From Escherichia coli (GTDB lineage Bacteria > Pseudomonadota > Gammaproteobacteria > Enterobacterales > Enterobacteriaceae): a stretch of DNA of 64,000 bases. Under the pieces are notes generated by a model. The model made no database searches. It was not told where the DNA came from and worked only from the letters and a program-made list of their open reading frames with translations. The stretch is from NCBI RefSeq assembly GCF_030013205.1, contig NZ_CP122648.1, one strand, 5' to 3'. Positions 37,503 through 64,000 of this stretch are shown piece after piece (the first letter of the stretch is position 1; every line of letters starts with the position of its first letter). A program made the position numbers and the translations under genes.

Positions 37503-37508
37503 GATTAC

Positions 37509-37542
37509 AAGCGCATGTTATTGTTTAACATGCGCTTTTTTA
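37509..37542 (+). terminator. Rho-independent terminator of serX
   Basis: AAGCGCATGTT-loop-AACATGCGCTT followed by TTTTTT. Confidence 0.6.
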
Positions 37543-37651
37543 TTTGTCCTTCCGGACAGTATGCCATCGGGTATGCCATCTGAAACCGGTTTATATGCCC
37601 CACGATCATATCTTATCGGACAATTTCCGATCTTTGAGCATACTGGCAAAG

Positions 37652-38002
37652 CTATACTGCCAGCATGTCAGGATAGTGTTTTGCGATAATATCATTCAGT
37701 CTGTCAACCAGTTCTGGTTTTCTGAACGTGATATGCGCGGAGCCCTTCTTAAAGTATCTGATGCTGAACATCTCATCTTCATAGTCCTCTTTACCCTGAA
37801 CAGACTGGATGTGGTCATCCAGATGAATGGTGATGTTTTCCCGGTTGTCGGGGATCGGTTTGCCGCTGAACAGATAATCGTTATCGCAGACCACGTTAAT
37901 CAGTTCAGCAAGAGTAACACCATCGACGTCAGCGACAATGCGCCCCATGTTCAGTGCCTGCACGTTAATGCTGTCGGCTTCCAGCGTCAGGGCCAGTTTC
38001 AT
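37652..38002 (-). CDS. Hypothetical protein immediately downstream of cbtA (YeeW-like position)
   Basis: 116 aa ORF whose start overlaps the cbtA stop by 4 nt; function not recognisable. Confidence 0.5.
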   Translation of the reverse strand: MKLALTLEADSINVQALNMGRIVADVDGVTLAELINVVCDNDYLFSGKPIPDNRENITIHLDDHIQSVQGKEDYEDEMFSIRYFKKGSAHITFRKPELVDRLNDIIAKHYPDMLAV

Positions 38003-38376
38003 TGTTTCGCCCCCGGATGTTTACCCAGGGTAATGTTATTTACCGTTCTGTAATTGTCGCGGGTCATCAGGCCTGTCGCCCGGCGGGCCCGGAGGATATC
38101 GATGCTGTTTATTAACTGAGAGTGGGTACAGGCGCTGAATCCCGGCTGGTCGGTACGCACCAGTGCGTATTTTTCCACGAGAAAGTTCACCGCATCACAC
38201 AGTGAAATGCCAGCTTCAATATGCTGCTCAATCACACGTTCATCGGCAAACGGTGTGTTATTCAGTGTGAGGCCGTAGTGCTGGTCCAGCAGTCGGGACA
38301 GCAGTATCTGCCAGATTTCAACAGGAGACGGGCGAGAACTGGCCGCCTGCCCGGGTAATACAGGTAATGTTTTCAT
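37999..38376 (-). CDS. cbtA: CbtA/YkfI/YpjF-family cytoskeleton-binding toxin (type IV toxin-antitoxin)
   Basis: 125 aa MKTLPVLPGQAASSRPSPVEIWQILLSRLLDQHYGLTLN... matches my recollection of CbtA (YeeV). Confidence 0.78.
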   Translation of the reverse strand: MKTLPVLPGQAASSRPSPVEIWQILLSRLLDQHYGLTLNNTPFADERVIEQHIEAGISLCDAVNFLVEKYALVRTDQPGFSACTHSQLINSIDILRARRATGLMTRDNYRTVNNITLGKHPGAKQ

Positions 38377-38464
38377 ACTGAAGATTTTCCTGATATGCAG
38401 ATATAAAAATGGGAAAGTGGCGTGGTGAAAACACCAGGCCGTAGCAGAAGGCTATTCGGGAGAG

Positions 38465-60761: not shown

Positions 60762-61982
60762 TGTAGATTCAATTGGTCAACGCAACAGTTATGTGAAAAC
60801 ATGGGGTTGCGGAGTTTTTTTGAATGAGACGAACATTTACAGCAGAGGAAAAAGCCTCTGTTTTTGAACTATGGAAGAACGGAACAGGCTTCAGTGAAAT
60901 AGCGAATATCCTGGGTTCAAAACCCGGAACGATCTTCACTATGTTAAGGGATACTGGCGGCATAAAACCCCATGAGCGTAAGCGGGCTGTAGCTCACCTG
61001 ACACTGTCTGAGCGCGAGGAGATACGAGCTGGTTTGTCAGCCAAAATGAGCATTCGTGCGATAGCTACTGCGCTGAATCGCAGTCCTTCGACGATCTCAC
61101 GTGAAGTTCAGCGTAATCGGGGCAGACGCTATTACAAAGCTGTTGATGCTAATAACCGAGCCAACAGAATGGCGAAAAGGCCAAAACCGTGCTTACTGGA
61201 TCAAAATTTGCCATTGCGAAAGCTTGTTCTGGAAAAGCTGGAGATGAAATGGTCTCCAGAGCAAATATCAGGATGGTTAAGGCGAACAAAACCACGTCAA
61301 AAAACGCTGCGAATATCACCTGAGACAATTTATAAAACGCTGTACTTTCGTAGCCGTGAAGCGCTACACCACCTGAATATACAGCATCTGCGACGGTCGC
61401 ATAGCCTTCGCCATGGCAGGCGTCATACCCGCAAAGGCGAAAGAGGTACGATTAACATAGTGAACGGAACACCAATTCACGAACGCTCCCGAAATATCGA
61501 TAACAGACGCTCTCTGGGGCATTGGGAGGGCGATTTAGTCTCAGGTACAAAAAACTCTCATATAGCCACACTTGTAGACCGAAAATCACGTTATACGATC
61601 ATCCTTAGACTCAGGGGCAAAGATTCTGTCTCAGTAAATCAGGCTCTTACCGACAAATTCCTGAGTTTACCGTCAGAACTCAGAAAATCACTGACATGGG
61701 ACAGAGGAATGGAACTGGCCAGACATCTAGAATTTACTGTCAGCACCGGCGTTAAAGTTTACTTCTGCGATCCTCAGAGTCCTTGGCAGCGGGGAACAAA
61801 TGAGAACACAAATGGGCTAATTCGGCAGTACTTTCCTAAAAAGACATGTCTTGCCCAATATACTCAACATGAACTAGATCTGGTTGCTGCTCAGCTAAAC
61901 AACAGACCGAGAAAGACACTGAAGTTCAAAACACCGAAAGAGATAATTGAAAGGGGTGTTGCATTGACAGATTGAATCTACA
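60762..61982 (+). mobile_element. IS30 (1,221 bp) inserted into orfA of the IS3-family element
   Basis: Terminal inverted repeats TGTAGATTCAATTGGTCAACGCAACAG and ...ATTGAATCTACA; exact IS30 length. Confidence 0.85.
60824..61975 (+). CDS. insI: IS30 transposase
   Basis: 383 aa MRRTFTAEEKASVFELWKNGTGFSEIANILG... with DDE motif. Confidence 0.9.
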   Translation: MRRTFTAEEKASVFELWKNGTGFSEIANILGSKPGTIFTMLRDTGGIKPHERKRAVAHLTLSEREEIRAGLSAKMSIRAIATALNRSPSTISREVQRNRGRRYYKAVDANNRANRMAKRPKPCLLDQNLPLRKLVLEKLEMKWSPEQISGWLRRTKPRQKTLRISPETIYKTLYFRSREALHHLNIQHLRRSHSLRHGRRHTRKGERGTINIVNGTPIHERSRNIDNRRSLGHWEGDLVSGTKNSHIATLVDRKSRYTIILRLRGKDSVSVNQALTDKFLSLPSELRKSLTWDRGMELARHLEFTVSTGVKVYFCDPQSPWQRGTNENTNGLIRQYFPKKTCLAQYTQHELDLVAAQLNNRPRKTLKFKTPKEIIERGVALTD

Positions 61983-62239
61983 GCGGCTTTTTTTAATATG
62001 TCCCGTTCGTCGGTAACCCGTTTCAGCTCTTTCTGGAGACGGCGGATCTCGGCCTGAGCATCTGACTGTTCTTTATTAGTGGAAGAATCCGGACCGTACT
62101 TCTTTATCCAGGCATAAAGGCTGTGGGTGGTGATATCGAGACGTGTTGCAACGCTGGCAACAGAATAACCACGATCAACAACCTGTTTGACTGCTTCAGT
62201 TTTAAACTCTTCGGGATAACGCTTACCGCTCATGGGCAC
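61983..62239 (-). pseudogene. IS3-family transposase OrfA, interrupted near its 3' end by IS30
   Basis: MSGKRYPEEFKTEAVKQVVDRGYSVASVATRL (HTH)...DILKKAA then IS30; the remaining orfA codons ([13 protein letters not shown]) lie at 60723-60761. Confidence 0.7.
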
Positions 62240-62927
62240 CTCTCTTTAAGCCATCTTAAATGACTCTGAGGTGTCTGTTAAACCCGTGGCGATTCACGTA
62301 TCGCATTGGGCAAACTAAAGATGTGTATGTCTATTACCCAACTGTGAGAGATACTGAAATTACAACATTTGAAGAAACTCTGGATAACCTCCTACAACGC
62401 CGACGAGCATTGGCCAGAGATATGCTCTGCGCTACTCCCGATTTGAACTGTGCGGATTTTGAGACCATTTTGAAGGGAGCCTAACCGATATGAGCGGCAA
62501 TACTGCCAGTTGCCAAACCTGAAATAACACTTAGCTGTGATGATTCGCTATTACCTACCGATAGCTTCGGAAAACATAAATTAAAAATGCCCAGGGGAGT
62601 ACTATTATCGTTAGCATTACCCGAACGCCGTATTAACGGTTATTTATTGGTAAGTGCTACGTTCCATGGCAAGAGTTCATCAACACGGTTAGCCGACAGT
62701 ATATTGAGTATATGGCGCAGATATGCTTGCGGATTGATACCATTCAGACAGCAGGTCCCGCTCAGCCCGTACAGTAGAGCGCCGTTCACTACCGTAATCA
62801 CTGCCGAAAAACACATTGATTGCCCCTCAATAATCCTGCCGTCAACGTCAAAATTGCTGGTCGGGCTCGACTTATTTAATTGTGTAAACAGGGCCTCTCA
62901 GCGAAGGCCCTTATGCATCACCTGATG

Positions 62928-63359
62928 TTAAAAGTCACTACATCCAAGATGACGTTCAATGGCACCATGCGATTCAATGTAAGCCTGGGCCGTCTGTTCC
63001 AGTACACCAGGCTCAGCGTTGTATGTGTTAGCTGCATCAAATACCAACGACAACACTTCGGGATACACAACCAGATGTGTAACGGAGTTATCTTCATCCA
63101 ATACTTTTCCCCACGCCTGCTCAATTAGATTTCTGAGAACCACCACCTCACGACTCTTACACCAGACATCGTTATTAAGTAGCAGCACCATAAGATAAGG
63201 AGTGGCATCGTTAGCCACAGCTTCCCTACTCCAGAGGTAATATAAAGGGGTGGGCTCGACTGATTTATCTTTACGTCGCTTACACTGCAAATGTTCAGAA
63301 ATTAGTCTATGCAGTTCACCAGTAAAATCAACCATCAGAGAAGGAATTGCCTTATTCAT
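62928..63359 (-). CDS. Hypothetical protein (143 aa) abutting the IS1 end
   Basis: ORF only; no recognisable motif; start 15 nt from IS1 terminal inverted repeat. Confidence 0.3.
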   Translation of the reverse strand: MNKAIPSLMVDFTGELHRLISEHLQCKRRKDKSVEPTPLYYLWSREAVANDATPYLMVLLLNNDVWCKSREVVVLRNLIEQAWGKVLDEDNSVTHLVVYPEVLSLVFDAANTYNAEPGVLEQTAQAYIESHGAIERHLGCSDF

Positions 63360-63373
63360 ACCAGGGCAATGTA

Positions 63374-64000
63374 GGTAATGACTCCAACTTACTGATAGTG
63401 TTTTATGTTCAGATAATGCCCGATGACTTTGTCATGCAGCTCCACCGATTTTGAGAACGACAGCGACTTCCGTCCCAGCCGTGCCAGGTGCTGCCTCAGA
63501 TTCAGGTTATGCCGCTCAATTCGCTGCGTATATCGCTTGCTGATTACGTGCAGCTTTCCCTTCAGGCGGGATTCATACAGCGGCCAGCCATCCGTCCTCC
63601 ATATCCTGTCATACGCGTAAAACAACCAGCGCCGACGTAACCCCACTGTTCGTCCATTTCCGCGCAAACAATGACGTCACTGCCCGGTTGTATGCATGAG
63701 TTTACCGACTGCGGCCTGAGTTTTTTAAGTGTCGTAAAATCGTGTTGAGGCCAACGCCTATAATGCGTGCACTGGCGCGACATCCGACGCCATTCATGGC
63801 CATATCAATAATTTTCTGGTGTGTACCGGGCTGAGAGGCGGTGTAAGTGAACTATAGCTGCCATGTTTTACGGCAGTGAGAGCAGAGATAGCGCTGATGT
63901 CCGGCAGTACTTTTACCGTTACGCACCACGCCTTCAGTAGCTGAGCAGGAGGGACAACTGATGGAGATGGAAGCCACGGGAGCACCTCAAAAACACCATC
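63374..64000 (-). mobile_element. IS1 copy, defective, running off the window end
   Basis: IS1 right inverted repeat GGTAATGACTCCAACTTACTGAT at 63374; insA region with premature TAG (KTWQL*); insB with internal deletion of about 100 bp; left inverted repeat cut by window edge. Confidence 0.8.
63389..63667 (-). pseudogene. insB: IS1 InsB fragment (internal deletion)
   Basis: ...[11 protein letters not shown] then jump to [65 protein letters not shown]. Confidence 0.7.

Follow-up and report, generated by a model that had tools for sequence, protein, structure and literature searches.

A probable integrative island of the SRL-PAI/OI-48 family at serX of Escherichia coli, with its integrase at the tRNA-distal end

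Boundaries of the island and its integration site

A stretch of 64,000 nucleotides from Escherichia coli (contig NZ_CP122648.1, assembly GCF_030013205.1), hereafter referred to as the window, contains a single tRNA gene according to ARAGORN. This gene, encoding tRNA-Ser(GGA) at 37415-37502 (+), is intact and was also matched by the Rfam tRNA model; comparison of its neighbours ghrA-ycdX-ycdY-ycdZ-csg with those in K-12 identified it as serX. Upstream, the region comprises flgG to flgN, murJ, pyrC, the mdo genes, csgBAC/csgDEFG, ycdZ, ycdY, ycdX, and ghrA, corresponding to the K-12 serX neighbourhood. The DNA that follows the tRNA very probably represents one integrative island of 37,024 bp that belongs to the family of SRL-PAI, OI-43/OI-48 (SpLE1), and PAI-CFT073-serX (PAI, pathogenicity island; OI, O-island). 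The apparently missing integrase of this island is located at its tRNA-distal end, approximately 10 kb beyond the end of the window. A preliminary description of the same DNA had proposed that conserved core synteny stops at serX and that an island is inserted at the 3' end of the tRNA gene. Both proposals were confirmed, and the first island base determined here, 37503, is identical to the start given there.

For reading past the window end, we used the chromosome of the porcine enterotoxigenic E. coli (ETEC) strain ETEC4079 (NZ_CP122643.1), which is base-identical to the window over 30700-64000. In this record the locus, L001, is numbered such that the window coordinate equals the L001 coordinate + 30699, and positions beyond 64000 are given as window equivalents. 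Upstream, the two sequences differ by a single 1-base indel near 5631, by flgN/murJ; 4175 apparent mismatches upstream of 5632 were dismissed as an artefact, as they are explained by this indel. Given the indel, the window derives from a sister genome nearly identical to ETEC4079 and not from the ETEC4079 record itself. The last 14 bp of serX, CCCCCTCACCGCCA (37489-37502, +; L001 6790-6803), constitute the attL core, the left copy of a direct repeat. The attR core is found beyond the window end, at L001 43814-43827 (equivalent to 74513-74526), beside the integrase gene int, and is followed by the native serX terminator, dgcT, and then pgaA. Within 49 kb, CCCCCTCACCGCCA occurs exactly twice, even if up to two mismatches are allowed, and the two copies are in direct orientation. 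The island extends from 37503 to window-equivalent 74526 (L001 43827), with 10.5 kb lying beyond the window, in agreement with the earlier proposal that it continues past the window end.

An empty site is provided by strain WP4-W18-ESBL-09 (NZ_AP022069.1), in which dgcT directly follows a serX gene identical to that of the window. In the alignment, the left junction is identical through the tRNA to ...CACCGCCA and diverges at once thereafter; the right junction begins to match at the 14-mer and continues to do so across the hairpin and T-run native to serX. The bases adjoining the core are C-core-T in attB, C-core-G in attL, and T-core-T in attR, and a sequence of T-core-G can be inferred for attP. 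The empty serX-dgcT junction occurs in 1149 of 5426 complete E. coli genomes, the set used for all population counts, and because of its existence both island boundaries could be fixed to the base. Many other genomes, K-12 among them, contain a ycdU-containing filling that begins approximately 100 bp past serX. Just inside the island, a hairpin with a 12-bp stem followed by TTTTATTT (37509-37537, +) stands in for the native serX terminator, which stays with attR. The native terminator was not called on the plus strand by a consensus terminator scan at attR, yet its hairpin and T-run are visible by eye. The GC content of the island is 46.9%, compared to 49.9% in the flanking core. The GC minimum of the window (0.39-0.41, at 30000-33000) is located in the core csgBA-csgDEFG region, not in the island.

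Whether or not an island is present, genomes also differ in the DNA between the serX terminator and dgcT (L001 43828-43930; K-12 locus L005; O157 locus L004). This interval consists either of approximately 100 bp (1149 genomes) or of a ycdU/malonyl-transferase cluster, which is truncated by IS3 in K-12 (IS, insertion sequence), and serX-family islands occur in both backgrounds.

The integrase gene and its position

The int gene (L001 42445-43653, equivalent to 73144-74352, −) is an uninterrupted open reading frame (ORF) encoding an intact P4-type integrase of 402 amino acids, and its 5' end faces attR. The protein comprises the Pfam domains Arm-DNA-bind_3, Phage_int_M, and Phage_integrase, which are the three domains of P4-type integrases, and is 97% identical at the amino acid level to the serX-island integrase of an O157:H7 genome. 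Together with its 5' flank up to the core, int was found in 1259 of the genomes, in two allele groups; the junction of serX with DUF4942 at the opposite end was found in 1350, a closely similar count. In every relative examined (O157:H7, the CFT073 PAI-serX, MB46, and 88COLEC), serX is followed by the DUF4942-DUF5983-CbtA end of the island, and int adjoins the 14-bp copy at the other end. Because 1259 genomes keep the junction of the int flank with the core, this geometry holds for the whole family. In attP, the int flank lies on the side of the core that matches the tRNA body in attB, and serX therefore abuts the far end of the element. Since the flanking repeats are direct, inversion of the element as a whole is excluded.

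The preliminary description had correctly noted that the tRNA-proximal end carries no integrase; none is annotated anywhere in the window. It had ascribed this absence to inversion or erosion of the original element and had proposed to search the DNA downstream for an integrase and for a second copy of the serX 3' end, and to compare the region with other serX islands. Both sequences are present, the exact 14-bp copy 37 kb away and int just inside it. With direct repeats, an intact int at the far end, and a layout that O157:H7, CFT073, MB46, and 88COLEC share as the norm of the family, the ascription could not be upheld. Erosion did occur within the island, in the form of three deletions and several IS insertions, but does not account for the position of the integrase.

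The K-12 element CP4-6 at thrW displays a comparable layout (thrW/ykfI-yafW … intF/end). A common integrase lineage as the source of this likeness was rejected, as IntF resembles the island integrase solely in the catalytic domain, at approximately 21% identity. Since CP4-6 combines this layout with an integrase of different descent, an integrase next to the tRNA is not a general expectation. An integrase missing beside the tRNA is, by itself, no sign of inversion or decay. The present family, which occurs in about one quarter of the complete E. coli genomes, has int in the tRNA-distal position by construction, and scans for islands should inspect both ends before an element is called degenerate.

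Candidate arm-type sites

The 9-mer GTATGCCAT is present in four copies in 49 kb, two at each island end, compared to a chance expectation of 0.46; no shuffled sequence gave four. The copies form two pairs with a spacing of 12 bp in each. On the attL side, the GTATGCCAT-N3-GTATGCCAT pair is located at 37559-37579 (+), 57 bp inside attL. The attR-side pair lies outside the window at L001 43675-43695 (equivalent to 74374-74394), between the start codon of int and the attR core. Pairs at matching positions were identified in O157, MB46, 88COLEC, DAX4, the uropathogenic E. coli (UPEC) 26-1, and CFT073, the latter with one substitution on the serX side. The pair was not found at the empty-site, K-12, and yecA loci (L003, L005, L006, L013). 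We infer from the sequence that the pairs are candidate arm-type sites for the arm-binding domain of the integrase. The occurrence of the pair at both ends ties these to one element and speaks against two independent neighbouring elements. The junction of the putative attP circle would read …GTATGCCATTCAGTATGCCAT…~120 bp…T-CCCCCTCACCGCCA-G…56 bp…GTATGCCATCGGGTATGCCAT.

Directly ahead of the attR core, on the side facing int, lies GGCGG, giving rise to the imperfect palindrome GGCGG-N9-CCGCC (L001 43808-43826), which does not occur in attL or attB. It may represent a core-type binding feature or may be due to chance.

The serX-proximal CP4-like module

As proposed in the preliminary description, the gene nearest to the tRNA belongs to the distal end of a CP4-like module. 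This module consists of DUF4942', DUF5983', cbtA, cbeA, an antirestriction gene, Ag43', and a GTPase gene, all on the minus strand. A C-terminal fragment of DUF4942 is fused to an N-terminal fragment of DUF5983 (37652-38002), as evident from comparison with the intact module of MB46; the fusion is annotated as a pseudogene in RefSeq. The toxin gene cbtA (37999-38376) and the antitoxin gene cbeA (38465-38833) form a type IV toxin-antitoxin pair (37999-38833), and both ORFs are intact. The next segment (38883-40227) carries an antirestriction-like fusion ORF and the N-terminal 291 residues of Ag43 (NCBIfam auto_Ag43, 1-291 of 948), identified by BLAST against MB46 and an anti-restriction match in PHROG. 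The innermost gene of the module, at 40600-41472, is annotated as a YeeP-like GTPase gene. Between the latter and the truncated Ag43 gene, upstream of Ag43, an IS102 (IsrC-type) small RNA (sRNA) region was detected at 40246-40482 (−; Rfam RF00124, 73 bits). This arrangement is the same as in K-12 CP4-44.

The order typical of CP4-like modules such as those of CP4-44, CP4-6, and CP4-57 has been retained: YeeP-like GTPase, Ag43, (DUF932), antirestriction, (RadC/JAB, DUF987), CbeA/CbtA, DUF5983, (DUF957), DUF4942. The genes in brackets are gone, and Ag43, DUF5983, and DUF4942 are cut short, by three deletions relative to MB46. A deletion of 1,271 bp at ~37875 fuses DUF4942' to DUF5983' with loss of DUF957, a deletion of 1,402 bp at ~39090 removed an antitoxin-like gene together with DUF987 and RadC/JAB, and a deletion of 3,251 bp at ~39360 removed DUF932 and most of Ag43. 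The junctions of all three overlap by 2-9 bp, constituting microhomology. No difference from MB46 (100% identity) was seen over the initial 462 bp running from serX into the island. A scan of the small island proteins against NCBIfam yielded only the Ag43 match and one integrase domain match below cutoff.

Central cargo with predicted anti-phage genes

The module is followed by a complete type IC restriction-modification (R-M) system of the EcoR124 family (41736-47774, +) consisting of hsdM (41736-43292), hsdS (43289-44536), and hsdR (44658-47774). All three genes are full-length and were matched by the PADLOC models MTase_I, Specificity_I (1-417 of 417), and REase_I. The system was assigned to type IC because HsdR aligns end to end (1-1038 of 1038) with the EcoR124I/II HsdR in the Protein Data Bank (PDB). 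The operon aligns with that of MB46 except at 43346-43750 within hsdS, as might be expected if a target-recognition domain had been exchanged and the specificity differed accordingly. An IS5-like ISKpn26 is annotated at the stop codon of hsdR (47771-48970, −). An IS5 is located at the same position in MB46 and 88COLEC, and past this element the cargo diverges among the related islands.

Further downstream, two remnants were identified from annotation and PADLOC, the 5' part of a second hsdM (49164-50135, +) and, abutting it, the 3' part of a DUF262/HNH gene (50128-51471, +). They are joined at a deletion junction at ~50136; two DUF262 genes are intact in 88COLEC and MRSN346638. The remnants are followed by hhe (51658-57393, +), a full-length anti-phage gene of the DUF4011 type (PADLOC Hhe, 4300 bits, profile 1-1911 of 1911). 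With the type IC R-M system and a full-length Hhe, both predicted from their genes, the island clusters two anti-phage systems, and a cluster of at least two such systems is classed as a defence island. The serX/serW pathogenicity-island chassis here holds anti-phage cargo in place of virulence or resistance genes, in the lineage of porcine ETEC and O139:H1 strains.

The DUF262-Hhe cassette (50136-57576) is 99.8% identical to a cassette located beside yecA/tyrP in unrelated strains such as MRSN346638, and in both contexts an IS3-family fragment lies to the left of it. This similarity suggests a recent movement of the cassette between hotspots. In the sister strain W13-16, hhe is interrupted by IS1203.

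Insertion sequences, group II intron, and int-proximal segment

The accessory, mosaic, and IS-rich character ascribed earlier to the DNA downstream of serX is evident within the window from IS5/ISKpn26, IS3-family fragments, IS30, and IS1. An IS3-family (IS911-like) transposase gene (57614-60759, −) is split into fragments at 57614-58072 and 60334-60759 by a full-length group II intron (58063-60332, −). The intron encodes an intact ltrA (58153-59661), its GTGTG 5' end and its 3' end were read directly, and domain V/VI was matched by Rfam Intron_gpII. The IS911/intron region is 98.9% identical to the IS911/ykfC region of K-12 CP4-6. The same intron insertion corresponds there to the truncated ykfC/eyeA region, and, as judged by this comparison, the K-12 eyeA sRNA locus appears to lie within the 5' part of the group II intron. 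The adjacent IS30 (60762-61982, +; annotation) is 99.6% identical to K-12 IS30A, and compared to K-12 CP4-6, the IS911/intron segment is inverted relative to IS30. The remaining part of the window (61985-64000, −) contains transposase fragments, a YagK/YfjJ-domain gene (62928-63359), and a decayed IS1 that starts at 63374 and runs past the window end, as determined from annotation and BLAST with K-12 IS1.

Outside the window, the ETEC4079 annotation lists Gp2/YagK-type genes and a TOTE primase pseudogene, followed by a hypothetical gene that is split by IS2 (window-equivalent 67654-68984) with a target duplication of 5 bp. An intact gene at window-equivalent 70314-70562 (+) encodes an AlpA/Rox-like helix-turn-helix (HTH) protein of 82 amino acids. 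This protein is 79% identical to the HTH protein of the CFT073 island, and its excisionase/regulator matches in PHROG are weak (E = 1e-6). It is followed by a DUF3987 helicase/primase-like gene (window-equivalent 70578-72920, +; PHROG helicase match) that is split by IS1 at 71680-72446 with a duplication of approximately 9-10 bp. Apart from these two simple insertions, of IS1 and IS2, the part beyond the window is 99-99.8% identical to the serW island of DAX4. No relaxase, oriT, or type IV secretion gene is annotated in the 37 kb, where no search aimed at relaxase or oriT was run.

Distribution and related islands

Only 58 of the 5426 genomes contain the initial 10 kb of the island to an extent of at least 80%, and most genomes consequently do not carry the same content beside serX. 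The whole mosaic is restricted to approximately 15 genomes, all of which are porcine ETEC or O139:H1. The island displays the features that define the family: insertion at the 3' end of serX with the tRNA intact, a 14-bp repeat, a P4-family int, and the location of int at the attR end.

In O157:H7 EDL933, OI-43 and OI-48 are flanked by the perfect direct repeat TGGCGGTGAGGGGG, representing the last 14 bp of serW/serX (PMC3064760). CCCCCTCACCGCCA is the reverse complement of TGGCGGTGAGGGGG. The repeats of OI-43/48 are identical to those of the Shigella SRL-PAI, and the respective P4-family int genes are 99% identical at the nucleotide level (PMC3064760). Excision between the repeats occurs at approximately 2e-4 for OI-48 and 2e-3 for OI-43, and truncated OI-48 derivatives in O157 still excise (PMC3064760). 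Excision of SRL-PAI is int-dependent and precise, and serW has been suspected to be an alternative site (PMC7545054).

OI-48/OI-43 (SpLE1 of strain Sakai), a tellurite-resistance and adherence island, shares with the island described here the serX/serW target, the 14-bp repeat, an integrase of 97% amino acid identity, the DUF4942-DUF5983-CbtA end at serX, and int at the cryptic ser'X end. In contrast to the 37-kb island with its type IC R-M system and Hhe, the O157 islands carry ter, ure, and iha as cargo and have a size of approximately 87 kb. The HTH/DUF3987 segment is a diverged variant in opposite orientation, without a nucleotide-level match to the int-proximal locus of O157 (L004). Common features with SRL-PAI are the serX target with serW as alternative, 14-bp repeats reported to be identical, a P4-family int, and int-dependent excision (PMC3064760, PMC7545054). 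SRL-PAI differs in its size of 66 kb and its antibiotic-resistance and fec genes. PAI-CFT073-serX and the serX islands of UTI89, RS218, and IHE3034 occupy the same site, belong to the same integrase group, and have the layout dgcT/int ... CbtA-DUF5983-DUF957-DUF4942/serX. These islands, however, are 62-113 kb in size, with S pilus, salmochelin, and intact Ag43 genes.

The same backbone, type IC R-M system, and IS5 at the hsdR stop codon are shared by the serX islands of MB46 (from poultry) and 88COLEC (from human). 88COLEC additionally carries the DUF262-Hhe block, the IS3::intron, IS30, and the int module in the same order; MB46 has McrBC instead of Hhe. Unlike the present island, both retain DUF957, the full DUF4942, RadC/JAB, DUF932, and a full-length Ag43. 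With approximately 56 kb and located in a ycdU-type background, the 88COLEC island looks like a less-decayed version of the one described here. K-12 CP4-6 resembles the island not only in layout but also in its CP4-like module and in the IS911::IS30 and intron segment; it differs in its integrase, tRNA target, and cargo. In strain DAX4, an integrase with the identical protein accession is located beside clpA, which in K-12 is a neighbour gene of serW, and the int-proximal 9 kb are 99-99.8% identical. This serW-side copy fits the dual serX/serW specificity known for the family.

Proposed mechanism and alternative explanations

Homologous islands that have been studied experimentally suggest how the island would have integrated. 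A P4-type tyrosine integrase would recombine attP with the last 14 bp of serX; relative to the core, int would occupy in attP the position held by the tRNA body in attB. Integration would regenerate the 3' end of serX and leave the tRNA intact, and the element would supply a replacement terminator. After integration, the intact tRNA would abut the toxin-antitoxin end, and int would come to lie at the distal end, towards dgcT and by the displaced 14-bp copy (attR). The backbone has two parts, the CP4-like module (GTPase, Ag43, antirestriction, CbeA/CbtA) on the serX side and, at the distal end, int, the AlpA/Rox-like HTH gene, and the DUF3987 gene. The centre holds exchangeable cargo, here the defence genes for EcoR124-type R-M and Hhe. 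In the porcine ETEC/oedema-disease lineage, the island has been eroded internally by the three microhomology deletions, by insertions of IS5, IS3, IS30, IS1, and IS2, and by the group II intron.

There is virtually no probability that the DNA after serX is ordinary core genome. Nothing was found in favour of this explanation, and it was rejected because 1149 genomes join serX directly to dgcT, the filling in K-12 differs, only 58 genomes share the first 10 kb, and the GC content deviates from that of the core. Inversion or erosion that moved or removed an integrase once situated next to serX would be in line with a window devoid of an integrase, the three deletions near serX, and the many IS elements able to mediate rearrangement; a local rearrangement did in fact occur in the IS911/intron segment, which is inverted relative to IS30 in comparison with K-12 CP4-6. 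We nevertheless regard this as extremely unlikely, as the repeats are direct, int is intact at the other end, the initial 462 bp running from serX into the island are unchanged relative to MB46, and uneroded relatives as well as approximately a quarter of E. coli genomes have the same layout. An old CP4-like remnant without integrase at serX that is joined to an independent int-bearing element near dgcT would explain why the central cargo is bounded by IS elements and varies among relatives, and why the Hhe cassette occurs at other places in other genomes. Such a pair of elements would be expected neither from the empty site, which corresponds to one clean insertion between serX and its native terminator, nor from the nearly equal counts of the left junction (1350) and of int plus core (1259). 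In addition, no internal att copy was found with up to two mismatches allowed, a single integrase is annotated, and the arm-like motif pair marks both ends and nothing else; we therefore consider two elements to be very unlikely.

A single island of the SRL-PAI/OI-48 family may, on the other hand, have become an immobile relic that reached fixation in this porcine lineage and persists solely on account of its cargo, no longer able to excise or transfer. The IS1-split DUF3987 gene and the adjacent IS2-split gene, the many pseudogenes, and the lack of annotated conjugation genes are in accordance with this possibility. The near-identical island in approximately 15 porcine ETEC or O139:H1 genomes from several countries suggests vertical inheritance. 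However, int, the AlpA/Rox-like HTH gene, both att cores, and both motif pairs are intact, IS1 is missing in some sister strains, which places this decay in the recent past, and in O157 even truncated OI-48 derivatives still excise (PMC3064760). We regard immobility as possible rather than probable. Equally tentative is the proposal that the island is a still active SRL-PAI-type element. The GTATGCCAT pairs would then be the arm sites of an attP of ~210 bp, and the element would shuttle between serX and serW and exchange defence cassettes (EcoR124-type R-M, DUF262-Hhe) with hotspots such as yecA in livestock E. coli. The parts that excision would require are present, namely int, the AlpA/Rox-like HTH gene as a putative recombination directionality factor, both att cores, and both GTATGCCAT pairs. 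If the proposal is true, such a shuttle could shape the phage susceptibility of porcine ETEC and oedema-disease clones.

Several points weigh against the interpretation as one integrative island of this family that integrates and excises as proposed. Integration and excision by the ETEC4079-type copy are predicted from its homologues, and the arm-site role of GTATGCCAT is deduced only from position, copy number, and conservation. The likeness to SRL-PAI was derived solely from the O157 homologue and the published 99% nucleotide identity of int, and with the DUF3987 gene split by IS1 and its neighbour by IS2, post-excision functions may be lost. The family and the serX hotspot are already well described; what is new is a defence-loaded and internally decayed member, which matters modestly for phage therapy against pig pathogens or for their phage typing.

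P4-like satellites and phage-inducible chromosomal islands (PICI) combine int, alpA, and a primase-replicase with capsid-redirection or packaging genes (sid, psu, delta, or equivalents) in approximately 10-15 kb. An assignment of the island to this group was rejected despite its int, AlpA-like HTH, and DUF3987 genes, since the annotation lists neither packaging nor capsid-remodelling genes and the elements of the family have sizes of 37-113 kb. In the DAX4 region with the identical integrase beside clpA (L011 10872-19571), a second small phage-like cluster of satellite-like character is located just past clpS and comprises genes for a capsid protein, a head decoration protein, a small terminase, and a primase.

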